32,000 nucleotides of DNA, taken from positions 51,719 through 83,718 of the forward strand of contig JBEKOX010000001.1 of NCBI GenBank assembly GCA_049521335.1, read 5' to 3'. This DNA comes from Chitinispirillaceae bacterium. Its GTDB lineage: Bacteria > Fibrobacterota > Chitinivibrionia > Chitinivibrionales > Chitinispirillaceae. A model generated the notes under the pieces. That model searched no databases and was not told the DNA's origin. It saw nothing but the letters and a program-made list of their open reading frames with translations. The position numbers and the translations under genes were made by a program. Positions 1,851 through 15,707 of this stretch are shown here, in pieces (positions within the stretch are counted from its first letter, which is position 1; each line of letters starts with the position of its first letter).

Positions 1851-3173
1851 ATGAATCACTCCCTCTTATGGCAAAATGTTCTCGAGCATCTCTCCCGCTC
1901 TATCGATGCCTATCGATTTGAAACACTATTCCGTCCTCTCTCAGTAACTGAAAACACCGATTATCCAGTTCTTTCGCTCACGTCGCCGAATAAATATATC
2001 GCTGAACATCTTGAAAAACACTATAAGAAAAGTCTTCTGCTTTCGGCCAGGACATTTTCACCCGATATCAGAGATATTCATATCGTTTTTGATTCCCGGG
2101 ATGACTTATCCGCCAGTAAGCCCGACAATAGTTCATCTTCTTCGGCGCCGTTTCTCCGGCTTAATCGTCGGTATACCATGGATAGTTTCGTGGTCGGTTC
2201 CAACAATCAGTTTGCCCAGTCCGCCGCCTCGGCTGTCGCCGTAGCGCCCGGCAAGACTAAATTCAACCCTCTATTGATCTACGGCTCCGTCGGCCTCGGA
2301 AAAACCCATCTTTTGCAGGCCATCGGTAATCATGCTCTTTTAAATAACCCCCGCTGCTCCGTCATTTACAGCACCGCCGAAGAGTTCTATCTGTCCTTTA
2401 TCGATACGATCAAGACCAACAACACAAAAAAATTCTCCACCTATTTTAAAAATGCGGATATCTTACTTGTCGACGATGTCCAGTTTTTTTCCGGTAAAGA
2501 AAGTTCTCAGGAAGAGTTCTTTCATATTTTCAATAATCTCCACAAAAACGGAAAGCAGATAGCGCTCACTTCGGACATTCCTCCCCATGAAATCGCGGGA
2601 CTTCAGGATCGCCTGATCTCGCGTTTTCAATGGGGGCTTTGCGTCGACATCCAGCCTCCGAATTTTGAAACCCGCGTAGCAATTTTGAAGAAAAAAGCCG
2701 AGGAGGATAATCTTAATATCGGCGAGAATATACTTTGTTTTATAGCGGAACAGGTACCTTCGAATGTGCGTGACCTCGAAGGCGTCATTATAAAACTCCT
2801 GGCTTACGCCTCAATTACAAAATCCGATATAACCATAGATTTTGTCCGCAGTGTCTTGAAAGACACTGATATAAACCATAAGATGAATATTTCTCTCGAT
2901 GAAATAATCGAAAAGGTCGGTCAATATTATAAAATTCCCGTGAACAAGATCAGGGAAAAAGATCGCAGAAAAGAGGTAGCGCTCTGCCGACAGGTAGGCA
3001 TGTATGTTTCAAAGTCCATTACAAAATACTCCCTGAAAACCATCGGGTTGCATTTTGGCGGGAGAGATCATAGTACGGTAATCCACGCTATTAAGAATGT
3101 TGAAAACCTTAAAAAAAACGATGAATTGCTGATGCATGACATAGAGTACATCATTAATTCCCTCAAAACGTGA
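1851..3173 (+). CDS. dnaA: Chromosomal replication initiator DnaA
   Basis: A 440-aa ORF with AAA+ Walker A (GSVGLGKTHLL), Walker B (LLVDDVQFF), sensor (SNVRDLEG) and the C-terminal DNA-binding helix region (GGRDHSTVIHA). Confidence 0.95.
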   Translation: MNHSLLWQNVLEHLSRSIDAYRFETLFRPLSVTENTDYPVLSLTSPNKYIAEHLEKHYKKSLLLSARTFSPDIRDIHIVFDSRDDLSASKPDNSSSSSAPFLRLNRRYTMDSFVVGSNNQFAQSAASAVAVAPGKTKFNPLLIYGSVGLGKTHLLQAIGNHALLNNPRCSVIYSTAEEFYLSFIDTIKTNNTKKFSTYFKNADILLVDDVQFFSGKESSQEEFFHIFNNLHKNGKQIALTSDIPPHEIAGLQDRLISRFQWGLCVDIQPPNFETRVAILKKKAEEDNLNIGENILCFIAEQVPSNVRDLEGVIIKLLAYASITKSDITIDFVRSVLKDTDINHKMNISLDEIIEKVGQYYKIPVNKIREKDRRKEVALCRQVGMYVSKSITKYSLKTIGLHFGGRDHSTVIHAIKNVENLKKNDELLMHDIEYIINSLKT

Positions 3174-3260
3174 GATTACCAATACCTTCTTAATGGATAA
3201 TCAACATTACACTATAGTTTTATGATCTTGATTTTCATATTGTTACGTTTCTTTTCCCAG

Positions 3261-3269
3261 TTATGCACA
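3261..3269 (+). promoter_or_regulatory. DnaA box (TTATGCACA, fits TTATNCACA)
   Basis: Direct read of the sequence at 3261-3269. Confidence 0.55.
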
Positions 3270-3321
3270 CATCTACTATCTTTTACTTGTTTTCTTAAGG
3301 AGTGATTTTAAAAAATAGGCG

Positions 3322-3330
3322 TGTGGATAA
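3322..3330 (-). promoter_or_regulatory. DnaA box (perfect TTATCCACA on the minus strand)
   Basis: The plus strand reads tgtggataa at 3322-3330. Confidence 0.6.
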
Positions 3331-3479
3331 CTATTGGTTTCTCAATGTTTATTTAGTGAGAGTATATTATTTTCGATACAGTTCATTTCGTATGCGGGCG
3401 ATAACTATATTTTTACCTTTTATTGGTTTCATCGGCACCCTGGCTTACTACTAAAAAGAACACGATCGGAGCTGCTCTT

Positions 3480-4616
3480 ATGGCCTTTTCAATTTCCAAT
3501 CAATCTTTTTATGATATCCTGCAAAAAGTGTACCCTATTATTCCCCTCAAAAGCTCACTTCAGATATTATCTAATTTCAAAATTTCCTATCAGAACGAGC
3601 AGCTTGAGATTACCGCTACCGATCTCGATCAATCGATAAGGATTATTACCAACGTGTCCGGGGATACCGAGCCGTTCGATGTTACCGCGAACGCCCGAAG
3701 GGTCTTCGAAATTGTGCGGGAACTTCCCGACGGGCAGGTCACTGTCTCCGTTGAGGATAACGTCATCAATTTTGGAACCGAAAGAAATTTCAAGTGCAAA
3801 ATTGCGGGCGCGGATACCGGAGATTTCCCGGGATTTCCCGAAATAAACGGAGGAACGACGTTTGAAATAAACTCCGCTTTGTTAAAAACAATGATACCGA
3901 AGAGTTCCTTTGCCGCGGCGAAGGACGAATCGAGAGCATGCCTTGCGGGTATTCTCTGGGAGAATCATCCCTCGAAAACCGGCATGATCGCCACCGACGG
4001 TCACCGCTTGGGCAGCTGTTTCATCAATGGAGCGTTTCCCGTAAAGGAAAAATTCAGCAGCATCGTGTCGCCCAAGAGCCTGAATCACCTGGTTCGTATC
4101 ATCGGTGAGAAAAACAGTGAAAATATCCGGGTAACCGTCAACGAAAAGTATATGATTTTCTCGGCAGGATCATTCGTGCTGTGCACGAAGCTGATCGACG
4201 GCCCCTATCCTGACTACAACAAGGTTATTCCGACCAACAACCCGAAGGAGGCGATCATAGACCGCGCATCGCTCTTGAACGCCATCCGGCGCGCCATGGT
4301 CCTCTCCAACCAGAAAACACACCTTGTAAAGTTCAGTTTCGCCGAAAATACGCTGGAAGTGGCTGTCGTTAATAAGGAAATAGGCGGCGAGGCCAAGGAG
4401 AAAATACCCATAGAGTACCACGGGGACCCCCATCAGATCGGATTCAACGCGCAGTACTTTAATGAAATTATAGACATCGCTAAGACGCCGAAAATTAAAT
4501 TACAGATGAATACCCAGATCAGCGCGTGTTTGATCTTTCCGGTTTATGAGAAGGAGAAGGAGAAACCAAGCGATGACCTTTTTCTGCTCATGCCGTTACG
4601 AATAATGGAGATGTAA
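3480..4616 (+). CDS. dnaN: DNA polymerase III beta sliding clamp
   Basis: The ORF-track frame 3423..4616 begins at a TTG. The in-frame ATG at 3480 gives MAFSISNQSFYDILQKV..., a typical beta-clamp N-terminus. Internal matches include LEITATDLDQSI, ATDGHRL, KLIDGPYPDYNKVIP and the ending LLMPLRI. It lies directly after dnaA. Confidence 0.9.
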   Translation: MAFSISNQSFYDILQKVYPIIPLKSSLQILSNFKISYQNEQLEITATDLDQSIRIITNVSGDTEPFDVTANARRVFEIVRELPDGQVTVSVEDNVINFGTERNFKCKIAGADTGDFPGFPEINGGTTFEINSALLKTMIPKSSFAAAKDESRACLAGILWENHPSKTGMIATDGHRLGSCFINGAFPVKEKFSSIVSPKSLNHLVRIIGEKNSENIRVTVNEKYMIFSAGSFVLCTKLIDGPYPDYNKVIPTNNPKEAIIDRASLLNAIRRAMVLSNQKTHLVKFSFAENTLEVAVVNKEIGGEAKEKIPIEYHGDPHQIGFNAQYFNEIIDIAKTPKIKLQMNTQISACLIFPVYEKEKEKPSDDLFLLMPLRIMEM

Positions 4617-4724: not shown

Positions 4725-4974
4725 GTTTCCCCGCCTGTATACCCATTTTGTCAAGTAAAACCGGCCTTTTCGCGTCCGCGGCAAATTGTACATGACTTAA
4801 CATAAACCGGGAATTTTATCCACGAAACGCGGTAAAAAAACGTTTAAAAGACCTTTAAAGGGCGGTTGAGGAACCTTTAAAACGGCGTGACCGCCCGCCG
4901 GCAGGTCCGTGGTTCACCCGGAAGCTGCACGGAGATCTCCGCCAGCGAGCTGGATAATTACCAGTTCTTATACG

Positions 4975-5850
4975 ATGTATTTTGATTCCATGCAGAAAAT
5001 CCTTCTCGCCTTCCAGCGCAACGAAATCACCGAGCACTTCGTGTATCGCGCCTATGCGCGCCGGGCGAAAGAAAAGAACCGCGAAATCCTTGAGCGCATC
5101 GCCGCGGACGAGCTCGGGCACTATCATCAATTTTTCAAATACACCAATCAGGAGGTCCGCCCCGACTGGCTGAAGACCCGCTTCTACCGGCTCTGCGCCC
5201 GGCTCTTCGGGTTGACGTTTGGGATGAAGGTCATGGAAAACGGGGAAAAACGCGCGGAAAAAGCATACAGCCACTTCGGCGATACCATGCCCGAGATCGC
5301 GCAGATTATCAGGGATGAGGCTGCGCACGAGCGGTTGCTCATCGGGCTTATCACCGAAGAGCGACTCTCCTACATGGGCACGATGGTGCTGGCGCTCAAC
5401 AACTCCATTCAGGAATTCTCCGGCATCGCCGTGGGGTTGACATTTGCCATGGGCAACGCCGGGCTTATCGGATCAACCATACTGATCAGCGGCATCGCGG
5501 CCACGCTGGCCATATCGGCCTCCGAGTATCTGTCGCAAAAGGCCGAGAAAGGGGATGCCCATGCCGCGGGCCGGAGCCCCCTCACAGCGATCGCCTGGGC
5601 CGGCGGAATTTACCTGGGCGTCGTGCTCGTTATCGCGCTGCCTTATTTACTCCTTATCAATTGCTACGCGGCGCTCGCGCTCGGAGCGGCGGCAGTCCTC
5701 ACGATCATCGTTGTCTTCACTTTTTACATGGCCGTGGTCAGGGACTTGCGCTACCGCGCCGTGCTGCTCGAAACCCTCGCGGTATTCGTCCTGGTCGTCG
5801 TTCTATCGTCCCTCATCGGCCTCGGCGCGAAACGATTGTTTCACACCTGA
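4975..5850 (+). CDS. Ferritin-like (rubrerythrin/CCC1 N-terminal) domain fused to a VIT1/CCC1-family Fe/Mn transporter
   Basis: The N-terminal half carries di-iron-type E..ExxH motifs (EITEHF, ADELGHY, RDEAAHERL). The C-terminal half has several hydrophobic helices typical of VIT1 (GIAVGLTFAMGNAGLIG, ISGIAATLAISASEYLS). Start chosen at ATG 4975 (MYFDSMQKIL); ATG 4990 is also possible. Confidence 0.7.
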   Translation: MYFDSMQKILLAFQRNEITEHFVYRAYARRAKEKNREILERIAADELGHYHQFFKYTNQEVRPDWLKTRFYRLCARLFGLTFGMKVMENGEKRAEKAYSHFGDTMPEIAQIIRDEAAHERLLIGLITEERLSYMGTMVLALNNSIQEFSGIAVGLTFAMGNAGLIGSTILISGIAATLAISASEYLSQKAEKGDAHAAGRSPLTAIAWAGGIYLGVVLVIALPYLLLINCYAALALGAAAVLTIIVVFTFYMAVVRDLRYRAVLLETLAVFVLVVVLSSLIGLGAKRLFHT

Positions 5851-5981
5851 TAAAGTGCATTGGCTCTTCGTTGAAAACGTTCTTGATTTTTTATGCTTCT
5901 TGATTTCTGAAGGTTCCGTCTCTTTTTGATCGGGACCAGGGGGGATATTTATATTAAAACCCTGACCACCTTTCATTTTTT

Positions 5982-7991
5982 ATGAAACCCCGCCACGAAC
6001 CGAAGGGCCCGCGCATGACCGAAATCCTCTGGGAAGGCAAATACAAAGACGGCAGGAAAACCGCGCCCGTGCGCATCGCGCTCCCGTTCCAGACCGTCGA
6101 GACGGTCAACGAGAGCGTCCAGGAGCGCCAGACCGCGCTCGACCTCTTCTCAGCCGGGAAAGATACGGAGTGGCGCAACCGACTCATCTGGGGCGATAAG
6201 AAATACGTGTTGCCGTCGCTTTTGCCCGAATTCGCGGGAAAGGTGAACCTCATCTATATCGACCCCCCGTTCGATACCGGGGCGAATTTCTCGTTCACGG
6301 CGACGATACCGGACGATCCGGAAAACGAAGACAATGAAGAAACAAGCTTTGTGAAGGAACCGAGCATTATTGAACAGAAGGCGTATAGGGATACGTGGGG
6401 GAAAGGAATTGATAGTTATCTTCATTGGTTCTATGAGGCTGTGCTACATTTGGATTCACTACTTTCTGAAAACGGCAGTATTTACGTGCATCTTGACTGG
6501 CATGTTAGTCATTATGCAAAAGCTGTGCTTGATGAAGTTTTTGGTGCAGATAAATTTGTTAATGAAATTGTATGGAAACGCTCTGATGCGAAGGGAGATT
6601 CAACGCAGGGAAGCAAGCATTATTCGCGTGTTCATGATGTAATTCTTTTTTATGCAAAATCAAAATCGGCAACTTGGAACCCCTTATTTGTTCCGTTGAG
6701 TCAAGAATATATAAAGAATTTTTATAAATATAAAGATCCTGATGGCCGCGCTTGGAAAATGGAGAATATGCTCGGCCCAGGTGGTGCGGCTAAAGGCAAT
6801 CCAGTGTATGAGGTTATGGGTGTTACTCGATCTTGGCGTTATTCAAAGCAAAGAATGCAAGATTTAATCAAAGCAGGCCGCGTAGTTCAGACAAAGCCTG
6901 GCAATGTGCCAATGGAAAAACGCTATTTGGAAGATACTAAAGGCGTTCAAGTAGGTACGTGGTGGGATGACATAAGCATGGTTAGAGGGTGGTCAGCAGA
7001 GAAAACTACTTACGCAACCCAAAAGCCAGAAGCATTATTGGAACGAATTCTAAAAGCCTCCTCCAATGAATCTGATCTTGTTCTCGATTGTTTCTGCGGT
7101 TCCGGCACCACTGCCGCCGTTGCCGAAAAGCTCAATCGCCGCTGGATCACCTGCGACCTTGGCCGCTTCGCCATTCACACCACGCGCAAACGCCTCCTTC
7201 AGATACCGAACGTCAAGCCCTTCATCGTCCAGAACCTTGGCAAGTACGAGCGTCAACAGTGGATCGCCGCCGAGTTTCACCAGCCGCAAAGCCGTCTCGA
7301 TCAGGAGAAGGCGTATCGGAACTTCATTCTTGATCTCTACCAGGCCCGCCCGGTAAGCGGTCATGTCTGGCTTCATGGCGCGAAGGCGGGCCGCATGGTC
7401 CATGTCGGCGCGGTCGATTCTCCCGTCAGCCTTGGCGATATCAAGGCGATCATTCAGGAGTTCTGGAAATCGGTCGGCAAGAGCAAAGAGATAAACCGGA
7501 GCGGGGTCGATGTCTTAGGGTGGGATTTCGCCTTTGAGATCAACGAGACGGCGCGTCAATACGCGGCGTCGAACAAGCTTGATCTTAAATTCAAGAAGAT
7601 TCCTCATGAAGTGCTCGAAAAGAAAGCCGTCGAGCAGGGCGATATTAAATTCTTCGAAATGGCTTCGCTTGAGGTAAAAACGAAAAAGTCAAAGAGGGAT
7701 TTGAGCGTCACCCTCGAAAATTTCATCGTTCCGCCTGACGACGTGCCCGAAGAGGTGCAGAAGAATATTTCCCATTGGAGCCAGTGGATCGACTATTGGG
7801 CGATAGATTGGGATTATAAAAACGACGCATTCCATAACCAGTGGCAGAGCTACCGCTCCCGCAAGGAACCGAAAATCGAACTCTCCGCCGTCTATACGTA
7901 TGAAAAAGCCGGCAGCTACTCCGTGCTTGTCAAAGTAATCGATATTCTCGGCAACGATACCACGAAATTATTATCCGTGGAGGTCGGCTGA
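5982..7991 (+). CDS. mod: Type III restriction-modification methyltransferase (Mod, beta-class N6-adenine/N4-cytosine MTase)
   Basis: The catalytic motif IV IYIDPPF (DPPF at 6261-6272) comes before the AdoMet motif I DCFCGSGTTAAVA (about 7086-7125). This circular permutation is typical of beta-class and Type III Mod enzymes. NRLIWGD and TQKPEALLERIL motifs are present. The stop overlaps the res ATG (TGATG at 7989-7993). An alternative start is ATG 6015 (MTEILWEGKY). Confidence 0.85.
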   Translation: MKPRHEPKGPRMTEILWEGKYKDGRKTAPVRIALPFQTVETVNESVQERQTALDLFSAGKDTEWRNRLIWGDKKYVLPSLLPEFAGKVNLIYIDPPFDTGANFSFTATIPDDPENEDNEETSFVKEPSIIEQKAYRDTWGKGIDSYLHWFYEAVLHLDSLLSENGSIYVHLDWHVSHYAKAVLDEVFGADKFVNEIVWKRSDAKGDSTQGSKHYSRVHDVILFYAKSKSATWNPLFVPLSQEYIKNFYKYKDPDGRAWKMENMLGPGGAAKGNPVYEVMGVTRSWRYSKQRMQDLIKAGRVVQTKPGNVPMEKRYLEDTKGVQVGTWWDDISMVRGWSAEKTTYATQKPEALLERILKASSNESDLVLDCFCGSGTTAAVAEKLNRRWITCDLGRFAIHTTRKRLLQIPNVKPFIVQNLGKYERQQWIAAEFHQPQSRLDQEKAYRNFILDLYQARPVSGHVWLHGAKAGRMVHVGAVDSPVSLGDIKAIIQEFWKSVGKSKEINRSGVDVLGWDFAFEINETARQYAASNKLDLKFKKIPHEVLEKKAVEQGDIKFFEMASLEVKTKKSKRDLSVTLENFIVPPDDVPEEVQKNISHWSQWIDYWAIDWDYKNDAFHNQWQSYRSRKEPKIELSAVYTYEKAGSYSVLVKVIDILGNDTTKLLSVEVG

Positions 7992-10564
7992 TGGCCCGTA
8001 AAGGAAACCCGCACCAGTCCGAACTCTTCGAAGATATTCTTCTTTCCCGCACCGCTCCCTGCGTTCCGGCGCTGCGGGAGGCCGTCGCTTCGTGGCGGGC
8101 ATCCGACTATAAGGGGATAACCGACACCACGCGGGAGCTTCTCAACTATTGGTTTTTCACCGATCACCTGTTATCAACCGGCAAGCCGTTCAAATACCAC
8201 GCCGCCCAGAAAGAGGCGATTGAGACGGCCATCTATCTTTTTGAAGTGCGTAATATTCGCTCGCGCAAAGCCCTGCTTGAAAACTTCTCGTATGATAACA
8301 AAAACATCCGGCTGCCGCCCTACGACGATTTCGCCCGCTACTGTATAAAAATGGCGACCGGAAGCGGCAAGACCAAGGTAATGGCTCTTGCGGTCGTCTG
8401 GCAGTTCGCCAATGCTGTCAAGGAGGGAAGGGACGATTACGCGAAGACCTTTCTCATTCTTGCGCCGAATGTCATTGTATTCGAGCGTCTTCAGCTTGAT
8501 TTTGGAAACGGTTTGATCTTCAAAAACGATCCGCTTATTCCGCGCCATTATAATGTGTGGTGGGACATGCAGTATTACATGCGCGGCGACCCGGAACGGT
8601 CGTCAAGCGCGGGCAATCTCTTCCTCAGCAACATTCAGCAGTTTTATGATCGCAGCGAAAGCCAGAGCGATAAAGAGCCGGAAATCATGACGGCCATGCT
8701 CGGCGCTGTTCCGCCGACCCAGAAGAATGAGATATCCGATTTCGACGACCGGATCGCGAAGCTCGATGGCCCGGTCATGGTGCTCAACGATGAGGCGCAC
8801 CACACCCACGATGAAGAGAGCGAATGGAATAAATTCTTACGAGGGCTTCACGCACGAAAGCCGCTTGCCGCGCAAGTCGATTTTTCCGCCACGCCCCGGT
8901 ATTCAAAAGGCGCGCTCTTTCCCTGGACGATATCCGATTACCCTTTGAAGCAGGCGATAGCTGACGGTCTGGTCAAGCGCCCGGTAAAGGGGATTTCGCA
9001 TATCGACGAAGGGCGTTCAAGCGTCTCAAATGTCCGCTATGCGGGCTTCCTTACCGCTGGCGTATGTCGCTGGAAAGAGTATGAGAAGCAACTTAAAGGA
9101 CTCAAGAAGAAGCCGATTCTGTTTATCATGATGAACAGCACGGCTGAGGCGGATGACATCGGCGAATGGTTGCGGACTAAATACCCTTCCGATTTCGGCG
9201 GCGATAAGACTCTTATCATCCATACCGACAGTAAGGGTGAAGTTTCCAAAGGCGATGTGGAGGAAGCCCGTAAACTTGCAAGGAACGTGGATCAGGAAAA
9301 ATCCACGGTCAATGCCATCGTCTCTGTCCTTATGCTTCGCGAGGGGTGGGACGTGCAAAACGTGACGGTCGTGGTGGGTTTGCGCCCGTACACCTCAAAG
9401 GCGAACATCCTGCCGGAGCAGGCCATCGGAAGGGGCTTGCGGCTCATGTTCAGGGGCGATCTGTCCGGCGGCTACACCGAGCGCGTTGACATCATCGGAA
9501 ACAAGACCTTCCTTGAATTTATCGACGATCTGGAAAAGATCGAAGATTTCCAACTCGATACTTTTGAAGTCGGCAAAGACCGGCTGAAAATCATCACCAT
9601 TGCCCCGGACCCGGAGAAGCTGTCGGCGGATATCGCCATCCCCGAACTGACGCCGATTCTCACCCGCAAGAAATCCCTTGCCGATGAGATCGCCGCGCTT
9701 GACGTGCAGAAAATAAAAATCGATCCGTTGCCGCTTGGATCAAAGGATAGCGCCGGGGCGAAAAAATTCATGTATGAAGGCCGGGACATTCTCACCGACG
9801 AGAAGCTCTTTGAACGGCAGTATGAAATACCGGAAGCCCAAACTGCTGAAGAGGTGATTGGTTACTATGCCCGCCGTATATCGCAGGAAATAAAGCTCCC
9901 TTCGCAGTTCGCGGCGCTTGCCCCCAAACTGCGGGAGTTCTTCGAATATCGAGCATTCGGAAAGCAAGTAAACCTTGGCGATCCGCTCGTCGTGAAGGCG
10001 GTGGGAAGTCGTCTTGCCTGCTTCGTAGTGCTCAAGGAGTTTGAGAAGCTCTTGCGGGAACTGGTCGTTGAGGAAAAAATTCCGGAACTCGTGAACTCCG
10101 GCAGACCGCTTTCATCGACGCCGCCCTTCCCGTTCTCGCGGCTTACCCTTGAATCTGCGAAAACTATATTTAATCTTGTAGCGTGTCATAACGATTATGA
10201 ACGCGATTTCGCCTCTTTTCTACACAATGCCGAAGACGTTTCCGCATTTGCAAAGCTGCCGGAGCAATTCGGCTTCTGCATTCAGTACACGGATACGCGG
10301 GCGAATCTACGCAATTACTTCCCGGATTTCGTCGCGCGGCTCAAGGACGGCTCATACTGGATCATTGAAACCAAGGGCCGAGAGGACATCGAAGTCGCCC
10401 TCAAGGACGACGCCGCCCGCATCTGGTGCAGTCACGCGACCACCCTCACGGGCAATAACTGGAATTATATCAAGGTGTTACAGAAGGACTTCGAGGAACT
10501 GGGGCCGGAGCGGTTTGAGGAGTTGGCTCTTACAAATCGAAGGGGTGCTTTCTTTTCCGGTTAG
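7991..10564 (+). CDS. res: Type III restriction enzyme Res subunit (SF2 DEAH helicase plus C-terminal PD-(D/E)xK nuclease)
   Basis: Walker A MATGSGKTKV (about 8351-8380), motif II LNDEAHH (DEAH from 8789) and helicase motif REGWDVQNV. The C-terminus has a nuclease-like YFPDFVARLKDGSYWIIETKGRED. The gene is coupled to mod by a 1-nt overlap. Confidence 0.85.
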   Translation: MARKGNPHQSELFEDILLSRTAPCVPALREAVASWRASDYKGITDTTRELLNYWFFTDHLLSTGKPFKYHAAQKEAIETAIYLFEVRNIRSRKALLENFSYDNKNIRLPPYDDFARYCIKMATGSGKTKVMALAVVWQFANAVKEGRDDYAKTFLILAPNVIVFERLQLDFGNGLIFKNDPLIPRHYNVWWDMQYYMRGDPERSSSAGNLFLSNIQQFYDRSESQSDKEPEIMTAMLGAVPPTQKNEISDFDDRIAKLDGPVMVLNDEAHHTHDEESEWNKFLRGLHARKPLAAQVDFSATPRYSKGALFPWTISDYPLKQAIADGLVKRPVKGISHIDEGRSSVSNVRYAGFLTAGVCRWKEYEKQLKGLKKKPILFIMMNSTAEADDIGEWLRTKYPSDFGGDKTLIIHTDSKGEVSKGDVEEARKLARNVDQEKSTVNAIVSVLMLREGWDVQNVTVVVGLRPYTSKANILPEQAIGRGLRLMFRGDLSGGYTERVDIIGNKTFLEFIDDLEKIEDFQLDTFEVGKDRLKIITIAPDPEKLSADIAIPELTPILTRKKSLADEIAALDVQKIKIDPLPLGSKDSAGAKKFMYEGRDILTDEKLFERQYEIPEAQTAEEVIGYYARRISQEIKLPSQFAALAPKLREFFEYRAFGKQVNLGDPLVVKAVGSRLACFVVLKEFEKLLRELVVEEKIPELVNSGRPLSSTPPFPFSRLTLESAKTIFNLVACHNDYERDFASFLHNAEDVSAFAKLPEQFGFCIQYTDTRANLRNYFPDFVARLKDGSYWIIETKGREDIEVALKDDAARIWCSHATTLTGNNWNYIKVLQKDFEELGPERFEELALTNRRGAFFSG

Positions 10565-10696
10565 GCAAAAAAAGGTACTTTCTAAATAGGAAAACGCCTC
10601 GGCATGCGGCCATTTGTCAATTTTCGACATCTCGGTCATTTTTCGCCGAATTGGGCATAAAGGGAATAATGCATTTGGAGGGGTTTTTAGGCGGTT

Positions 10697-10711
10697 TGGC
10701 ACGTTTTTTGC
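10697..10711 (+). promoter_or_regulatory. Sigma-54-type -24/-12 promoter-like element (TGGCAC-N5-TTGC)
   Basis: The sequence reads tggcacgttttttgc, an exact match to the GG/GC core with correct spacing. It is about 255 nt upstream of the ATG at 10967. No enhancer-binding protein gene is visible in the window. A TGgTAGAAT extended -10-like element sits at 10739-10747. Confidence 0.3.
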
Positions 10712-10966
10712 GCGATTATAAAGAAATGTTGCCAATGTTGGTAGAATAGATTGCTTCCATATCCAATTTGTTCTTAACTATTTTCGTATTGGTTATAAAA
10801 AGAGGCTTGGTCTAAAAAATGAGCCCGATGAAACCAGCCAGTAGTTTTCTTAGTGTCCCTGTAGAACAGATGAAGAAAATGTTGTTTATAAAAAAGGGAA
10901 GCCTTAAATCAAAGGCGGGTTGGGATTTTTTTTGCATAAAAATGCTTTTAAGGAAGGAGGCCCTTA

Positions 10967-11191
10967 ATGGCTTTTACTTTGGATAGTTTTCGAGATGCAA
11001 TGAAGACTCGCAGAGGGGATTTTTCGAACACCCCCAAATGTGAAGAGTGCGGAAAGCCTTTGCAAGAAACCCTTACGGGTAACCGCAAAATATCGAAGGG
11101 GTTTGTGTGTAGCGATTGCTATTTTGATTTATTAGGTAAAGAAATTGATGAGCATCCCATCTTGATTCATCGACCGGTTCACGGAACTTGA
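10967..11191 (+). CDS. Small zinc-ribbon protein (CxxC-N19-CxxC), unknown function
   Basis: A 74-aa ORF with a strong RBS (aaggaaggagg about 8 nt upstream of the ATG). Cysteine pairs CEEC and CSDC are separated by 19 residues. GC is about 35-40%. The stop TGA lies 1 nt before the start of the next ORF. Confidence 0.6.
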   Translation: MAFTLDSFRDAMKTRRGDFSNTPKCEECGKPLQETLTGNRKISKGFVCSDCYFDLLGKEIDEHPILIHRPVHGT

Positions 11192-11192
11192 C

Positions 11193-12131
11193 TTGCATAC
11201 TTATTTTATCGGTAAAGAAGAAGTTTCGCAGTATGCAAAGGATTTCGCAAATCGGTTAAATAAATTAAACGATTCCTTTCCATGCATATGGTGCACGATA
11301 GGGAAATCCGGCGATGAATTGGCGGATTTCTTATATGACTATTTTCCTTTAGAATATCGTCAAAGAATTCTTGTTATTCCATTGCAATGTGATAGAGATT
11401 CAAAATCCATTGTATTCGATAACCCCGCCGACAAAAATATTCTTAATTCAAAATGCAACGTTTTAATCCTCGACGGCGCAATTCATTCCGGGTCCTCCAT
11501 GCTTTCTGCAACCAAGATGCTAAGGGAGCTTGGTGTCGAAAAAATTACATCCTATTCCTTGGTTTTAAAGGCAGGTTCATCATTTATTCCTAATTTTTTC
11601 GGTTTAATTATAGCAGATCATGATAGGGCATTTTTCTTATTGGATGAGATTCCTAATAATCGCATAATGCCCTTTGGAACAATTAGAAAACTAACTTCTG
11701 ATGATGCAACAGAGAAAATAAAATTCCAATGCGGTCTTGAATCTATTGACAGATTTACGTGGGCAGATTTTTGGTATGAATGCGTTGCAGGTTCAAACCA
11801 AGTTTATGTTTATGAAAATGGTCCTGAAATTAGCGGGTTTATCAGTTTTACATTGAATGACAAGACCCTTTTTATTGATTCCGTTGCAAGCGATAAAAAA
11901 TGCGTAGGGCAAAAAATAGGGCAAAACTTAATGAGATGGGCTGAATCTTGGGCTCGTTCCAACAATTGCATTGGTATTAACCTTTGGGCAATAGATGAAC
12001 GAATAGGCTTCTACACAAACTTGGGGTTTGAGACATGTCAAGGAAAAGAAATGCAACTTGGGAAAGAAAAATATACGTCAATGTTCAGAAAGCTACTTTA
12101 CAATATTGATCCGTGTTGCATTCATAACTAG
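11193..12131 (+). CDS. Fusion protein: type I purine-PRTase-like domain (N-terminal) plus GNAT acetyltransferase-like domain (C-terminal)
   Basis: Residues ~1-165 follow the 6-oxopurine PRTase layout: IGKSGDELADFL, then NVLILDGAIHSGSSMLSATKMLRELG (PRPP-loop position, with DG for DD and HSGSS for DTGxT), then IPNFFGLIIADHDRAFF (the PDY-x-G...W-x-F region). Residues ~170-300 look like GNAT: FIDSVASDKKCVGQKIGQNLMRWAESWAR, then IGFYTNLGFE. The only usable start in frame is TTG 11193; the frame opens at 11166 and the next Met is about residue 102. Confidence 0.6.
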   Translation: MHTYFIGKEEVSQYAKDFANRLNKLNDSFPCIWCTIGKSGDELADFLYDYFPLEYRQRILVIPLQCDRDSKSIVFDNPADKNILNSKCNVLILDGAIHSGSSMLSATKMLRELGVEKITSYSLVLKAGSSFIPNFFGLIIADHDRAFFLLDEIPNNRIMPFGTIRKLTSDDATEKIKFQCGLESIDRFTWADFWYECVAGSNQVYVYENGPEISGFISFTLNDKTLFIDSVASDKKCVGQKIGQNLMRWAESWARSNNCIGINLWAIDERIGFYTNLGFETCQGKEMQLGKEKYTSMFRKLLYNIDPCCIHN

Positions 12132-12329
12132 ATGGCCGCCTTAATACCTATTCTACACTTAAAACCGTCCCGTGCGCGGAAAATCAGCCAAATATCTCCG
12201 GGTGGGTGTACCGGTACATAATACGCCTATATACCGTTTTATGGTTCGGCCTCCTGGCCCCGGTACGTCTTAAGCGAATGTCCATGAAATCGTCGCTGTT
12301 CAGGAACTGCCGCGAGCGAGAATTGTACC

Positions 12330-12899
12330 TCAGGCGGCAGCCATATTCGTTTCATGCTCCGAATGTCTGTTGATATCTTCCATCGTCACCGGGGTAGAAA
12401 CATGAAGCGGCGGCACCGGCAGTTTGGTCTTCGACGCTTTTTGAACGCAGTCAAGTAAACCGAATGAAATATTCATGAAGGCTTCTTTGGTAAAGTCCGC
12501 CACTCCTTTTTCGATGGTTTCATCGCCCCGCGCCATTTCGCGCATCTTATCAAGCAAAATCCTGAGTCTGAAGTAATGGTACTTCACCTGATCGGCCATG
12601 GTCATTCGGGTATCGGAAAATCCTATTTCAAGCCGCATATTTACCGCGGAACAGTATTGAACAAGATCATGAACGGTAAGGTCGGTATCTCGGGTATTTT
12701 CGATTTTTGAAACTTTCCCCTGACTGCAATTCATTTTTTGGGCGACGTCGTCCTGGCTCATGTTCGCCCTGCACCGCAAGGCGAAAAGCGTTTTTGAAAT
12801 CTGCTTCGAGTTAATAAGATCCGCCAAGGATTTTACCTCATCCTTATCCTCGGTAGAATCCTTGATCATATCCAGAACGGATGAAAATTGTTTAGCCAT
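12330..12899 (-). CDS. XRE-family HTH antitoxin (HigA-like) with a ~90-aa C-terminal extension
   Basis: HTH region LFALRCRANMSQDDVAQKMNCSQGKVSKIENTRDTDLTVHDLVQYCSAVNMRLEIGF. ATG at 12899 (MAKQFSSVL) is preceded by AGGAAGGGG and starts 2 nt after the toxin stop. The toxin-first order matches HigBA-type modules. Confidence 0.7.
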   Translation of the reverse strand: MAKQFSSVLDMIKDSTEDKDEVKSLADLINSKQISKTLFALRCRANMSQDDVAQKMNCSQGKVSKIENTRDTDLTVHDLVQYCSAVNMRLEIGFSDTRMTMADQVKYHYFRLRILLDKMREMARGDETIEKGVADFTKEAFMNISFGLLDCVQKASKTKLPVPPLHVSTPVTMEDINRHSEHETNMAAA

Positions 12900-12901
12900 G
12901 G

Positions 12902-13258
12902 TTACCCCTTCCTTTTCAACGGTCGTATGTAATCCTGACACTCCCTGATGTCGCCTTTCTGATCAACTTTTGTGCCAATGCTGATGACGTATAAAATCAT
13001 CGCGGCGGAATCGGGATAGATATAAAGCCGGGTTTGCATCAACTTACCTTTGCCGCCTTTTTGATCGATGGCCTTGATTCCTTCGGGCTCGTGATGGATG
13101 AACCCTGCATTGATATTTATCGGGTTGCTTCCATTTTCCAAAGCCTTGAAATAGGTGTCCAAATTGTCCAAAACCGCCGTTGCTTCTTCCCGATGCTTCT
13201 TTTTGAATCGTTCAAAACGACTGTCGAAGAAATCGGATTTTTGCAAAACCCAAGGCAT
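12902..13258 (-). CDS. RelE/HigB-superfamily (Gp49-like) toxin
   Basis: The 118-aa product from ATG 13258 (MPWVLQKSDFFDSRFERFKKK...) ends ...TRLYIYPDSAAMILYVISIGTKVDQKGDIRECQDYI. This fits the RelE/Gp49-type pattern (R-hYhY...hhhhhhhG-K..Q..DI). It is paired with an HTH gene immediately downstream. Confidence 0.55.
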   Translation of the reverse strand: MPWVLQKSDFFDSRFERFKKKHREEATAVLDNLDTYFKALENGSNPININAGFIHHEPEGIKAIDQKGGKGKLMQTRLYIYPDSAAMILYVISIGTKVDQKGDIRECQDYIRPLKRKG

Positions 13259-13332
13259 AATTATTTCCAATCGTAATAAATACGGACGTTATAATATAAT
13301 ATTTCGGCATAATTATTCCAAATCATAATAAT
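13254..13332. promoter_or_regulatory. Duplicated ~27-bp element (52-bp period) at the TA operon start; probable promoter/operator
   Basis: ggcataattatttccaatcgtaataaa (13254-13280, includes the toxin ATG) repeats as ggcataattattccaaatcataataat (13306-13332). The AT-rich spacer between them contains ttataatataat (-10-like on either strand). Confidence 0.4.
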
Positions 13333-13403
13333 TTCCCAATATAACCGTAGCCGGGCCGGCGCAGGTACGCTGCATCAGGCAATCGCTCTCCGGCCATCCA
13401 ACC

Positions 13404-13500
13404 CTTCGCAGTGGCTCGAAAAAATGGGTTTAAATGCCCGTTAAATGGCTGTTAAATGGTCATAAAACGGGGATTAAATAAAAAGAGGAAAAAATTCCAA
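13404..13500. repeat. Direct repeat copy A (97 bp) of a ~85-97 bp element
   Basis: cttcgcagtggctcgaaaaaatgggtttaaatgcccgttaaatggctgttaaatggtcataaaacggggattaaataaaaagaggaaaaaattccaa aligns with 14821-14904 at roughly 85% identity. Copy A carries one extra 11-bp unit. Confidence 0.8.
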
Positions 13501-13504
13501 GTCA

Positions 13505-13560
13505 TTCGGCAAAAAGTGGAAATCCGGCGTAGGAAACTCGCTCGGCAAAAAGTGAAAAAT
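13505..13560. repeat. Tandem direct repeat, ~36-bp period (tcggcaaaaagtg-core)
   Basis: ttcggcaaaaagtggaaat (13505-13523) and ctcggcaaaaagtgaaaaat (13541-13560). Confidence 0.6.
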
Positions 13561-13697
13561 CATGATCGGAGTTTAAGAATTGACGGAAGAAACAAATAGC
13601 GGGGAGGGATGCAATTCGCTCGATTCACGTCAGGTCTTTTAAATAAATTTCCGCGCCGCATATCCTGATCTTGTCCTTTGTGAGGACATCCCGGGTT

Positions 13698-13805
13698 TCA
13701 TCGAGTAAAAGCTGGACCGCCGATAAACACCATCTTTCGGGCAAGGTCTTTTTCCACTGCCCGGTCGAGATAGCGTTCAAGATATGCGATCAAATTAACC
13801 TCCAT
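13698..13805 (-). pseudogene. Possible remnant of an AAA-ATPase (COG1373/DUF4143-type) N-terminus
   Basis: From ATG 13805 the frame reads MEVNLIAYLERYLDRAVEKDLARKMVFIGGPAFTR and then stops. This resembles the start of such ATPases up to the point where the P-loop (GPRQxGKT) should begin. There is no P-loop and no remainder of the gene. Confidence 0.25.
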
Positions 13806-14129
13806 CAGAAAAAAGTCGCGAGTAATTTCCGATGCTACTAAAAATACTCGCGTACCAGGGGAGAAACAATATCTGCCGGATGTCGAAGGCAATCAACAAG
13901 GTCGCGCCTTTTGTGCAAGGGGACGTAGAGGGACGCTACCGCTGAAAAAATGGACTTCCGACGAGCAGGGGTTCTGAAGCGATCCTGGATAGTGATAACA
14001 ACAAGGGATACCTGTACCGATGCCCGTTTATTATTTTCAAATTGCGGTAGAGGACGAATATTTATTACTCTGTAGGAAAAGAATATATCTTTGGGAATTT
14101 TGAAATTCTCTAGTAGTAAGGAGGATACC

Positions 14130-14756
14130 ATGGAAAAACACCTGGCGCGTATAGCGATATCGTCACTTGTCGTACTCTCGGCATCGGCGTTTTCTCAGGT
14201 GAGCGTGCAGCCAGGGTTAGTATTAGGTGACGGAAATTATTGGCTCACGGATAATGGTACCTTTACAAATGCTGGAACAACAACTGGATTATTGGCGGGT
14301 GGAGTGCTGGACATATCATGCAGCAAGCATTTCTCTATTCAATCTGGAATAGAGTATTCTGAGCAAGGCTACTCTACTTTCCAAACCCCCTCGGGAATTG
14401 GGGGTATCCCTGGAATTGTAACTGTTGATGACAAATTTGATGAACTGGTGATACCGCTTAATTTCAAGGCTAAATTCCCAATATTGTCTATGTTTAGCCC
14501 ATATGCGCTGGCGGGATTAAATCTTGGTATGGTGCTGAGAACAACGGGAACGTGGACTCAATCAGGCCTTTTGGTTGAAAAGAATGTTGAAACGGGCAAT
14601 TTTAAAACAGATCTTGGTTTCGTCTTAGGTGCAGGGGTCGATTTTCATGTTGAAAACGTAATTCCGTTTTTTGAAATGAACTATTTGGACGATCCTACTT
14701 ATCATTTAGAATATACAGGTTTCGAAATTAAAGCTGGCATAAGGTTCAAAATGTGA
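14130..14756 (+). CDS. Small outer-membrane beta-barrel protein (OmpW/OMP_b-brl-like)
   Basis: ATG 14130 is preceded by AAGGAGGA. A signal peptide MEKHLARIAISSLVVLSASAFSQ is followed by alternating amphipathic strands (DLGFVLGAGVDFHV). The C-terminus FEIKAGIRFKM is typical of beta-barrel assembly signals. GC is about 45%, below the core. Confidence 0.6.
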   Translation: MEKHLARIAISSLVVLSASAFSQVSVQPGLVLGDGNYWLTDNGTFTNAGTTTGLLAGGVLDISCSKHFSIQSGIEYSEQGYSTFQTPSGIGGIPGIVTVDDKFDELVIPLNFKAKFPILSMFSPYALAGLNLGMVLRTTGTWTQSGLLVEKNVETGNFKTDLGFVLGAGVDFHVENVIPFFEMNYLDDPTYHLEYTGFEIKAGIRFKM

Positions 14757-14820
14757 TACTTGCCTCATTCTGACCTGGCCCTTCCTGACTCGGCCCTCCC
14801 GCAGCGGCACACCCTCGGCG

Positions 14821-14904
14821 CTTCGCAGTGGCTCTAAAAAAGTGGATTTAAATGGCCGTTAAATGGTCAATAAACGGGGATTAAAAAGAGGAAAAAAAGT
14901 TCAA
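14821..14904. repeat. Direct repeat copy B (84 bp) of the element at 13404-13500
   Basis: cttcgcagtggctctaaaaaagtggatttaaatggccgttaaatggtcaataaacggggattaaaaagaggaaaaaaagttcaa. It is in the same orientation as copy A and lies between the convergent 3' ends of the OMP gene and the GGGPS-like gene. Confidence 0.8.
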
Positions 14905-14942
14905 ATAATTATCTGCGCGCTGTTTTTTCTGCAAATCGACTG

Positions 14943-15707
14943 TTATTTCCTTCCGAACCCCTTCACCGCCTTCCCGATCTTTTTCATCATCTCCTCCCCG
15001 CCCTTCTTCTGCAGCAGGTTCCCGGTCACGATGATGTCCGCGCCGGCCGCGAGGATCGCTTCGGCGGTTTCGGCGTCGCGGATGCCCCCGCCCACGATGA
15101 GGGGAATGTCGATGAGCTCCTTCACCTTGCGGATCATCTCGCAAGGAACCGTCCGCGGCGCGCCGCTGCCCGCTTCGAGATAGACCAGTTTCATGCCCAG
15201 GTACTGCGCGGCAAGGGCGTGCGCCGCGGCGATGTCGGGCTTTGCGCGCGGCAGCGGCCGGGTGTCGCTCATGAACTCGACCGAGGTGACCGCGCCGGAC
15301 TCCACGAGCATGTAGGCCGTGGCGATGGGTTCGATGCCGAGTCTCCGGATGATCGGCGCGGCCTTGACATGCTCGCCGATGAGGTTCACCGGGTTGCGGC
15401 CCGAGATGAGCGACAGGTAGAGCAGCGCGTCGGCATGGCCGGAAAGCTGCGTCGCGTCGCCGGGGAACAGGATGACCGGAATTGAGATGCTCCGGCGGAC
15501 GCACTTGACGAATAAATCGAATGAGTTGTGGCGCAGGAGGCTGCCGCCGATGAGGACCGCGTCAACGCCGCCCGCGCTCCCGGCCGATTTCGCCACGCGG
15601 GAAGCCTCGCGGGGCGAGAAGTCGTCCGGATCGAGCAGGATCCAGTATTGCCGGGCGCCTTTCGCGACCTTCTTTTGCAATGCCTCAAATACGGATGGCC
15701 GTTTCAT
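14943..15707 (-). CDS. Geranylgeranylglyceryl/heptaprenylglyceryl phosphate synthase family protein (PcrB/GGGPS-like)
   Basis: From ATG 15707 (MKRPSVFEAL...) the protein has YWILLDPDD, VDAVLIGGS, PVILFPGD, LISGRNP, LVYLEAGSGAP and PLIVGGGIRDAETAEAILAAGADIIVTGN. All are collinear with the PcrB/GGGPS TIM-barrel motifs. The ATG overlaps the alaS TGA (ATGA at 15704-15707). The longer track ORF (to 15899) is an upstream extension inside alaS. Confidence 0.8.
   Translation of the reverse strand: MKRPSVFEALQKKVAKGARQYWILLDPDDFSPREASRVAKSAGSAGGVDAVLIGGSLLRHNSFDLFVKCVRRSISIPVILFPGDATQLSGHADALLYLSLISGRNPVNLIGEHVKAAPIIRRLGIEPIATAYMLVESGAVTSVEFMSDTRPLPRAKPDIAAAHALAAQYLGMKLVYLEAGSGAPRTVPCEMIRKVKELIDIPLIVGGGIRDAETAEAILAAGADIIVTGNLLQKKGGEEMMKKIGKAVKGFGRK

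Follow-up and report, generated by a model that had tools for sequence, protein, structure and literature searches.

A mobile gene pair encoding a zinc-ribbon protein and a PRTase::GNAT fusion in a Chitinispirillaceae bacterium: a candidate toxin–antitoxin-like or abortive-infection module

Which function can be assigned to two adjoining genes of foreign composition that lie behind a Type III restriction-modification (R-M) system in the genome of a Chitinispirillaceae bacterium? We addressed this question for a 32,000 nt stretch of contig JBEKOX010000001.1 (the window), in which a gene for a 74-aa zinc-ribbon (ZnR) protein is followed by a gene for a 312-aa fusion of a phosphoribosyltransferase (PRTase)-like domain and a GNAT acetyltransferase domain. 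With a probability of roughly 45%, the pair is in our view a toxin–antitoxin-like or abortive-infection module of autonomous character, in which the fusion acts as effector and is regulated by the ZnR protein. The pair and its upstream region comprise the following features:

10967–11191, plus strand: ZnR gene, an open reading frame (ORF) with ATG start, 74 aa
11193–12131, plus strand: PRTase::GNAT fusion gene, an ORF with TTG start, 312 aa
10955–10960, plus strand: Shine-Dalgarno sequence AGGAGG, 6 bases 5' of the ZnR ATG, from sequence reading
10565–10966, plus strand: AT-rich spacer of 402 bp (38% GC), from the Res stop to the ZnR start

An earlier reading made from the letters alone (the sequence-only reading) had named this pair as a candidate for a novel system. 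Both ORFs were found at the positions it had given, together with the 1-nt gap between them and the CxxC-N19-CxxC arrangement of the ZnR protein (C25-E-E-C28, 19 residues, C48-S-D-C51), and the motifs it had quoted for the fusion are present as well (VLILDGAIHSGSS at residues 90–102, VGQKIGQNLMRWAESWAR and GFYTNLGFE). The AGGAGG sequence agrees with the strong ribosome binding site that had been ascribed to the pair. Since the start codon of the fusion lies one base past the ZnR stop, translational coupling from the ZnR gene to the fusion is likely in the window pair. The module's own promoter is presumed to lie in the spacer. Of the long spacer with promoter-like elements that had been described, the 402 bp of AT-rich DNA are indeed there, but a sigma-70 scan of positions 10400–12500 returned 0 promoter-like sites versus 4.9 expected by chance. 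An Rfam scan of positions 10300–13600 matched no RNA element or riboswitch at E ≤ 1. A 55-aa ORF at 10819–10986 overlaps the ZnR start; it is called in public records (e.g., L103:6853–7020) and is probably spurious. The fusion is 100% identical to the NCBI protein [quoted passage not shown] (P0001), which stems from a metagenome-assembled genome.

We analyzed how strictly the two genes are associated. In a library clustered at 50% identity, the fusion family comprised 245 representatives with a cut-off of E ≤ 1e-3, of which 103 remained with a cut-off of E ≤ 1e-30; among the 150 relatives listed, most were full-length (300–340 aa) and the others were shorter fragments. A gene for 70–83 aa was present on the same strand directly 5' of the fusion in 16 of 16 distinct loci collected by means of the fusion, a count taken after removal of duplicates that includes one locus in which the gene caller had missed the ZnR gene (L026) and five genome loci that were translated in this analysis. 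The same position is occupied by a ZnR gene in the window and at a distant Ralstonia homolog. When metagenome contigs were searched with the ZnR protein only, 67 loci were obtained, and the fusion followed immediately 3' in 40 of the 45 distinct ZnR sequences whose contigs extend far enough in the 3' direction for a decision. The pairwise identities of the ZnR proteins were strongly correlated with those of the fusions (r = 0.91, Mantel p = 0.001, 38 distinct pairs). We therefore concluded that ZnR and fusion are inherited and diverge together, without swapping of partners. The ZnR protein is a genuine and conserved partner of the fusion. Two subfamilies can be distinguished by the intergenic gap, which measures 1–5 nt in one and 20–113 nt in the other. 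A gap of 1–5 nt implies translational coupling, so the genes of the first subfamily are probably coupled.

The ZnR family has the signature C-x2-C-x2-(P/V)LQET(I/V/L)TG-x-R ... CSDC(Y/F)(Y/F)-x3-G ... HPI, and residues C25, C28, L32, E34, G38, R40, C48, S49, C51, and P64 are invariant in the alignment. A profile search yielded 272 clusters; among the 120 listed, the proteins have ~70–100 aa and all but one are without a Pfam domain. For the ZnR protein of the window, Pfam gave only sub-threshold matches to generic zinc-finger and DUF families. The AlphaFold model (predicted local distance difference test score, pLDDT, of 83) shows a helix (5–21), a zinc hairpin (40–47), a second helix (49–62), and a disordered basic tail. 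The structure search found no significant fold relative of it in the PDB or in BFVD.

The fusion was resolved into two domains, with a conserved motif at their junction:

11193–11687, plus strand: PRTase-like domain, type I fold, 6-oxopurine PRTase-like, residues ~1–165 (AlphaFold, Foldseek, and profile matches)
11460–11501, plus strand: equivalent of the phosphoribosyl pyrophosphate (PRPP) motif, VLILDGAIHSGSSM, residues 90–103 (family alignment and hidden Markov model alignment to HGPRT)
11622–11663, plus strand: junction motif DRAFFLLDEIPNNR, residues 144–157, at the PRTase–GNAT junction and most conserved in the family
11715–12092, plus strand: GNAT acetyltransferase domain, residues ~175–300, with the acetyl-CoA motif A region VGQKIGQNLMRWAE and the invariant Tyr274

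The N-terminal domain is confirmed as an HGPRT-like type I PRTase. An AlphaFold2 model of the fusion, calculated with 43 homologs, reached a pLDDT of 88.5 and a predicted template modeling (TM) score of 0.83. Foldseek against the PDB matched the N-terminal half to HGXPRT and purine PRTases (5bqo, 4zfn, and 1vdm; TM score 0.65–0.81, E ~1e-8); with 5w8v included, the matches span TM scores of 0.56–0.81 and comprise archaeal and human 6-oxopurine PRTases. The best matches of the family profile of this domain among PDB sequences were human PRTFDC1 and HGPRT (E ~2e-5). Model, fold search, and family profile thus agree with the PRTase domain proposed from the letters, while Pfam alone stays below threshold: Pribosyltran scored 17.1 bits against a cut-off of 26.3 for the window fusion, and relatives reach or exceed this cut-off.

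The active site of this domain is conserved in an unusual form. The PRPP motif of the fusion family reads VLxLD(G/S)AIHSGxTM, and D94, H98, S99, G100, and M103 are invariant in the alignment. In the hidden Markov model alignment to human HGPRT (VLIVEDIIDTGKTM), the invariant D94 stands opposite the Glu E133, so that this acidic residue is retained. G95, which is Gly or Ser in the family, stands opposite D134, and the second acidic residue is lost. Opposite the catalytic Asp (D137) is H98, an invariant His; the Ralstonia branch has Arg at this position. Other elements are retained: S99-G100-x-S/T opposite the T-G-K-T of the 5'-phosphate loop, K126 (≥90% conserved) opposite K165 of SLLVKR, the Lys that recognizes the 6-oxopurine, D/E142 opposite the Mg-binding Asp D193, and S39-G40 opposite the K-G-G of the pyrophosphate (PPi) loop. 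The residue roles and the human numbering follow the HGPRT literature. Compared with HGPRT, the fusion therefore lacks the acidic dyad E133–D134 as such and the catalytic D137, and it has the 5'-phosphate loop, the PPi loop, and the equivalents of K165 and D193. Judged by these residues, the domain looks like a PRTase with an intact 6-oxopurine ligand pocket and an altered catalytic center.

D144 and R145 of the junction motif are invariant in the family. The sole low-confidence stretch of the model (pLDDT <50 at residues 149–154) lies within the DRAFFLLDEIPNNR motif. Such a coincidence would be expected of a loop that becomes ordered upon binding of a partner or ligand.

For the C-terminal half, three Pfam models scored above their gathering thresholds, namely Acetyltransf_1 (41.3 bits versus 20.7; E 2.2e-10), Acetyltransf_7 (38.0 versus 27), and Acetyltransf_10 (29.7 versus 23.6). 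Foldseek matched this half to RimI, CBU0801, Ard1, PaiA, and streptothricin acetyltransferases, with TM scores of 0.6–0.76 for RimI, Ard1, and PaiA. The family alignment shows invariant R248, R255, L264, and Y274 and a nearly invariant G243. Both hallmarks of the GNAT superfamily are present, a profile score above the curated cut-off and a fold with the conserved acetyl-CoA-binding β4–α3 segment and the catalytic Tyr. Profiles, model, and fold search thus uphold the GNAT domain that had been read from the sequence, and its conserved residues are consistent with an active acetyltransferase. Some family members (P0179 and P0183) retain the PRTase domain along with the LRWAETxAR helix and have no GNAT profile match; their acetyltransferase half may be degenerate. 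Such members bear on whether the PRTase or the GNAT domain acts as effector.

In its base composition the cassette is foreign to its surroundings. The fusion has a GC content of 36.4% and the ZnR gene one of 42.7%, compared to 52.7% for the window and 50–53% for the adjoining R-M genes. The pair had been called the most AT-rich coding DNA of the window, with 30–37% GC; this GC range fits the fusion but not the ZnR gene, and the non-coding region 3001–3500 is more AT-rich. A search for flanking direct or inverted repeats that would mark an insertion returned nothing but short matches at a level expected by chance.

Carriers of the family are rare and scattered; they belong to the Fibrobacterota, Verrucomicrobiota, Patescibacteria, and Proteobacteria, with a distant branch in Ralstonia. 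With one peptide pattern from a narrower alignment, it was detected in 6 of 185,579 species genomes, which belong to one member of the Saccharimonadales, Methylobacterium persicinum NBRC 103628, one member of the Methylococcaceae, and three Verrucomicrobiota. Ralstonia and the Chitinispirillaceae bacterium from which the window comes are further carriers. Sources are mostly soil, peat, and rhizosphere-type metagenomes. The distant branch is represented by the megaplasmid of Ralstonia solanacearum SEPPX05 (CP021449.1), in which a homolog with 23% identity lies near an integrase. This homolog has 353 aa and carries the record label "peptide transporter"; 5' of it we found an unannotated ORF for a 79-aa ZnR-like protein (L102:7708–7947) with the sequence CAEC..PLQESITGVR..CRAC. 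In the Methylococcaceae contig JBAQSX010000186.1 (L007/L022), the pair lies between rplT and pheS (L022:~9750–10939) and interrupts the otherwise conserved thrS-infC-rpmI-rplT-pheS cluster. This position shows an autonomous insertion that is not part of any one neighboring system. Because of the low GC content, the patchy phyletic spread, the rplT/pheS insertion, and the integrase neighbors, we concluded that the pair is an autonomous, horizontally mobile cassette.

The association of the cassette with defense islands is real but partial. By our own count, which has no background rate, about 10 of 26 non-redundant neighborhoods contain R-M, defense, or mobile-element genes, and this part of the proposed defense neighborhood stands; the remainder is housekeeping. 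The loci with such neighbors are:

Window: Type III R-M
L004: TnsA-like endonuclease, methyltransferase (Mod), GmrSD
L011: Mrr, SNF2 (PADLOC DrmD; the attribution to this locus is ours, as the scan gave aggregate counts), large methyltransferase, ResIII
L015: MmeI/Eco57I, SNF2, HNH
L026: type I R-M operon with the pair between hsdS and hsdR; DUF7380/EMARD and AbiJ-domain genes adjacent
L009: HxsD, radical SAM, NB-ARC/TPR, FRG
L027: radical SAM, Hsp70, 1225-aa DUF87 ATPase
L030: integrase, primase, excisionase-like helix-turn-helix (HTH) protein
L034: PLD-family nuclease
L051: DUF7380/DUF4209

Over 190 neighbor proteins, PADLOC gave many matches to models of R-M, DISARM, Zorya-D, MADS, PARIS-AriA, AbiL, and OLD. 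In two unrelated loci, a DUF7380 protein with a DUF4209/EMARD domain (~615 aa) is encoded just 5' of the pair (L026:4067–5917 and L051:5933–7774); it may be another uncharacterized defense-island gene.

How could such a pair work? As a toxin–antitoxin-like or abortive-infection module, it would have the 312-aa fusion as enzymatic effector. The HGPRT-derived domain would bind PRPP or a 6-oxopurine nucleotide (GMP, IMP, or a (p)ppGpp-like compound) in its pocket, and the GNAT domain would move an acetyl group from acetyl-CoA. As an outcome, a nucleotide-precursor pool would be drained, or a nucleotide-linked amine would be acetylated, either on a nucleotide or at the 3' end of an aminoacylated tRNA; both outcomes would halt growth of the infected cell. 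The ZnR protein, which is made first, would act as antitoxin or sensor and restrain the enzyme for as long as no infection occurs and the module is not lost. We infer that the ZnR protein binds to the fusion and that the fusion is toxic, acts on a substrate of the kind named above, and protects against phages. As an inhibitor or antitoxin, the ZnR protein would be expected to cover the acceptor site of the GNAT domain, the PRTase pocket, or the DRAFFLLDEIPN loop. The two domains could share the work in three ways. The PRTase domain may consume PRPP or a nucleotide while the GNAT domain modulates this activity, the PRTase pocket may hold a substrate, for instance a nucleotide or the aminoacyl-adenosine terminus of a tRNA, for acetylation by the GNAT domain, or both may perform a two-step synthesis of an acetylated nucleotide. 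A PRTase sensor with a GNAT effector, as had been suggested, is one of three options, and the reverse is equally possible because known PRTase-like defense effectors bind or deplete PRPP.

Orphan ZnR genes on viral contigs touch upon the proposed role of the ZnR protein. No homolog of the fusion was found in IMG/VR (2.9 million viral contigs) or in GenBank phages, and no ZnR homolog in GenBank phages. Two IMG/VR contigs carry orphan ZnR homologs, without the fusion. In one, a canonical ZnR gene (L100:469–666) adjoins a gene for a Sak4-like annealing protein (recombinase). In the other, two tandem divergent copies (L101:8001–8210 and 8227–8415), in which the LQET loop is replaced, lie among phage-family genes. 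Orphan ZnR genes on phages are expected if the ZnR protein were an inhibitor that was copied by phages, and they hint that these genes could be antitoxin mimics or anti-defense genes. Orphan ZnR genes were also present on a few cellular contigs; one of these adjoins a 1,002-aa ORF, which was judged from its sequence, with no family search, to encode a conjugative relaxase.

Several results weigh against a toxin–antitoxin or abortive-infection function. In PADLOC-DB 2.0, the ZnR protein had 0 matches and the fusion matched only PsyrT, with an E-value of 0.049 and over the PRPP loop. The nearest relatives of the GNAT domain are acetyltransferases of the streptothricin type, RimI, and Ard1, which are non-toxin enzymes. 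Most type II antitoxins carry a DNA-binding domain, and the ZnR protein is without a recognizable one. Lacking one acidic residue and the canonical Asp, the PRTase domain may bind a ligand without catalysis. Orphans were found for 0 of 18 fusions versus 5 of 45 ZnR genes; this asymmetry is statistically unconvincing as a toxin–antitoxin signature, and we did not rely on it. Among 72,556 plasmid records there was 1 distant match, a near-absence that is unusual for addiction modules. Finally, roughly half of the neighborhoods are of a housekeeping type, with genes for ribonucleotide reductase, aconitase, molybdopterin oxidoreductase, dnaG, or pheS. The sequence-only reading had stated that homologs in housekeeping operons without the ZnR partner would contradict a defense role: the housekeeping contexts were partly found, but the partner always stands beside the fusion.

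We compared the pair to known systems. GNAT toxins with small upstream antitoxins are well established, and the pair resembles TacAT, AtaRT, KacAT, and ItaRT in having a small gene directly 5' of a GNAT enzyme, often coupled to it, in being mobile, and in its conserved acetyl-CoA motifs. In contrast to these systems, the fusion is twice as long and begins with an HGPRT-like domain, a zinc ribbon serves as its partner, and no kinship in sequence was detected. Toxins of the TacT/AtaT/KacT/ItaT class are single-domain proteins of ~160–180 aa, while the fusion has 312 aa and two domains; instead of an RHH/DUF1778 antitoxin, the upstream gene encodes a four-Cys zinc ribbon without a match to RHH/DUF1778. 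Among 54 PDB profile matches (E ≤ 0.01) and the Foldseek top 50, no chain was named a toxin or recognized as TacT, AtaT, KacT, or ItaT. The analogy to this toxin class, which the sequence-only reading had drawn, is thus weak, given that the nearest relatives are of the streptothricin, RimI, and Ard1 types.

The other half of the fusion has precedents in defense systems. In ShosTA, a non-canonical PRTase-like protein is toxic and this toxicity requires PRPP binding (PMC12961424). The pair shares with ShosTA the organization as a two-gene module with a non-canonical PRTase-like protein, but has a 74-aa zinc ribbon in place of the DprA-like partner and a PRTase domain fused to GNAT. An assignment to ShosTA was rejected: no ShosT chain was among the PDB matches, there was no PADLOC match beyond the marginal one to PsyrT (the presence of ShosT and ShosA models in PADLOC-DB 2.0 is unconfirmed), and the ZnR protein is not DprA-like. 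Type III-A3 retrons such as Retron-Eco11 have PRTase effectors, whose activation depletes PRPP (PMC12746101, PMC7736814). The view that PRTase-fold effectors occur in retrons is therefore correct and extends to other defense systems (PMC7736814, PMC12746101, PMC12961424). Type III-A retrons and the pair have in common a PRTase-like domain, which is an anti-phage effector in the former; the pair differs by a GNAT domain and a ZnR partner in place of reverse transcriptase and non-coding RNA. The pair was not assigned to these retrons, as no reverse transcriptase is among the annotated neighbors in the window and at related loci and Rfam had no match at 10300–13600.

HGPRT, HGXPRT, and PRTFDC1 are the nearest relatives of the N-terminal domain in sequence and fold, collinear with it and sharing most site residues. 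The domain differs from HGPRT and HGXPRT by Gly or Ser at the second acidic residue, the change of Asp to His, the fused GNAT domain, and a location outside purine-salvage contexts. In ComF and ComFC, a PRTase-like domain likewise occurs together with a four-Cys zinc finger, and weak matches to DZR_2 (ZnR, 0.014) and TIGR00201 comF (fusion, 0.0069) were obtained. However, ComF is one polypeptide, whereas here the zinc finger is encoded by a separate gene, a GNAT domain is present, and no competence genes are nearby. ComF/ComFC was rejected, since TIGR00201 scored 16.3 bits versus a cut-off of 233.55 and covered the PRPP loop only. Both folds and the two-gene logic thus have precedents, and the combined architecture appears to be undescribed. 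The sequence-only reading had known of no system with this architecture; in agreement with this, PADLOC gave no system match, and full-text searches of the literature did not turn up a PRTase::GNAT fusion that is paired with a zinc ribbon.

Functions other than toxicity have to be considered. The GNAT domain could acetylate an amino group on a toxic nucleotide analog or on an antibiotic of nucleoside- or streptothricin-like type, which the HGPRT-like domain would dock or convert to a ribotide, with an accessory or regulatory role for the ZnR protein. Such a detoxification or resistance function would explain why, among PDB sequences, the family profile matches a putative streptothricin acetyltransferase best (3pp9, 7e-9), why its fold and sequence matches include nourseothricin and OrfE acetyltransferases, and why NCBIfam gave a weak Sat4 match to the fusion. 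The soil, peat, and rhizosphere-type sources together with horizontal movement fit as well, and a purine-shaped pocket beside an acetyltransferase would suit an aminonucleoside substrate. However, the Sat4 match (NF000360) has 16.6 bits versus a cut-off of 380, so that the fusion does not belong to this streptothricin acetyltransferase family. Resistance acetyltransferases are normally single genes, for which a conserved, co-evolving, and coupled 74-aa ZnR partner is unexpected, and instead of recurrent biosynthetic or efflux genes it is R-M and defense genes that recur in the neighborhood. We consider a resistance function improbable. We assign a similarly low probability to a nucleotide-gated protein acetyltransferase, in which a non-catalytic PRTase-like sensor of PRPP, GMP, or (p)ppGpp would switch a RimI/Ard1-like enzyme, and the ZnR protein would be its dedicated substrate or adaptor in a regulatory, non-toxic module. 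The GNAT fold of the fusion is nearest to the N-alpha-acetyltransferases RimI, CBU0801, and Ard1. As in the human paralog PRTFDC1, the top PDB sequence match, which has very low catalytic activity, His stands in place of the catalytic Asp and the second acidic residue is missing. Many neighborhoods are of a housekeeping type, and residue 2 of the ZnR protein is small (A, P, T, or V) in 16 of 16 aligned sequences, which fits removal of the initiator Met. Against this stand the lack of an invariant Lys in the ZnR protein and the fact that half of its N-termini would be Pro, a poor acetyl acceptor. Low GC content, patchiness, operon insertion, and integrase and R-M neighbors rather suggest selfish or defense cargo, and with 6 of 185,579 species genomes for the pattern used, the family is too rare for core regulation.

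The position of the pair in the window also raises the possibility of an accessory function for R-M systems. The fusion would then make or install an acyl modification on DNA or a nucleotide precursor, similar to Mom, as a mark of self or an extra barrier. Precedents are Mom, a DNA-modification enzyme of the GNAT family (PMC7824862), and the GNAT/TGT modules proposed for BREX-related systems (PMC12839542). Moreover, the window, L004, L011, L015, and L026 have the pair directly beside or within R-M operons of the same orientation. However, R-M systems of different types (I, IIG, III, DISARM-like) occur at different loci and are absent from most, the GC content of the cassette differs from that of the neighboring R-M genes, and Pfam and PDB profile searches revealed no Mom-like sequence match. 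This function is very unlikely in our view.

A more specific version of the toxin–antitoxin or abortive-infection module would be an undescribed class in which an HGPRT-derived pocket for a nucleotide or PRPP is wired to a GNAT domain. The enzyme would make or use up an acetylated nucleotide-type molecule, or acetylate an amine linked to a nucleotide, and it would be neutralized by a new zinc-ribbon antitoxin family that some phages have captured for counter-defense. Taken as a whole, this version is tentative and less likely than not.

The surroundings of the pair in the window contain the following genes:

5982–7991, plus strand: Type III Mod (Pfam N6_N4_Mtase, 1.8e-41); context, outside the module
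7991–10564, plus strand: Type III Res (ResIII, RE_endonuc; PADLOC REase_III, 1.5e-21); context, outside the module
12330–13270, minus strand: overlapping pair of genes for a 122-aa protein and then a 203-aa XRE-type HTH protein (HTH_31; PADLOC HTH_VI, 8e-8)

Pfam and PADLOC identified Mod and Res and with them the Type III R-M system that had been placed immediately 5' of the pair. The gene order of the window is dnaA, dnaN, a rubrerythrin-like gene, Mod, Res, the pair, the HTH and 122-aa genes on the minus strand, an outer-membrane beta-barrel gene, alaS, and recA. The same arrangement was found in other metagenome samples of the same organism. The toxin–antitoxin module that had been proposed downstream was not confirmed: it consists of the HTH protein and the 122-aa protein, and the latter had no match in Pfam, NCBIfam, PADLOC, or the PDB. 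The layout at 12330–13270 resembles a toxin-first toxin–antitoxin pair and is a candidate only. A block of lower GC content (4900–15000, 36–53%) comprises the rubrerythrin-like gene, the R-M genes, the pair, the HTH pair, and the outer-membrane beta-barrel gene. It lies between dnaN and the core with 60–67% GC (alaS, recA) and looks like a small origin-side genomic island. The dnaA/dnaN region spans 1851–4616, with an intergenic region at 3174–3422 that has 34% GC. This intergenic region harbors a perfect DnaA box at 3322 and a box with one mismatch at 3261 and is probably the chromosomal origin region. DnaA-box counts over the whole window were not above chance.

If the pair is a true defense or toxin–antitoxin module, it would represent a new effector architecture, PRTase::GNAT, together with a new antitoxin fold, and it would join the attack on PRPP or nucleotide pools, as by ShosT and the retron PRTases, with acetyl-CoA-dependent toxins. 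The invariant change of Asp to His in an otherwise intact HGPRT active site suggests an altered chemistry that is testable. Cultured carriers, Methylobacterium persicinum NBRC 103628 and, for the distant branch, Ralstonia solanacearum SEPPX05, allow experiments, and the orphan phage homologs of ZnR are ready material for a test of antitoxin mimicry. Should the pair instead serve resistance or regulation, its strict partnership with a zinc ribbon would still be new among GNAT enzymes.

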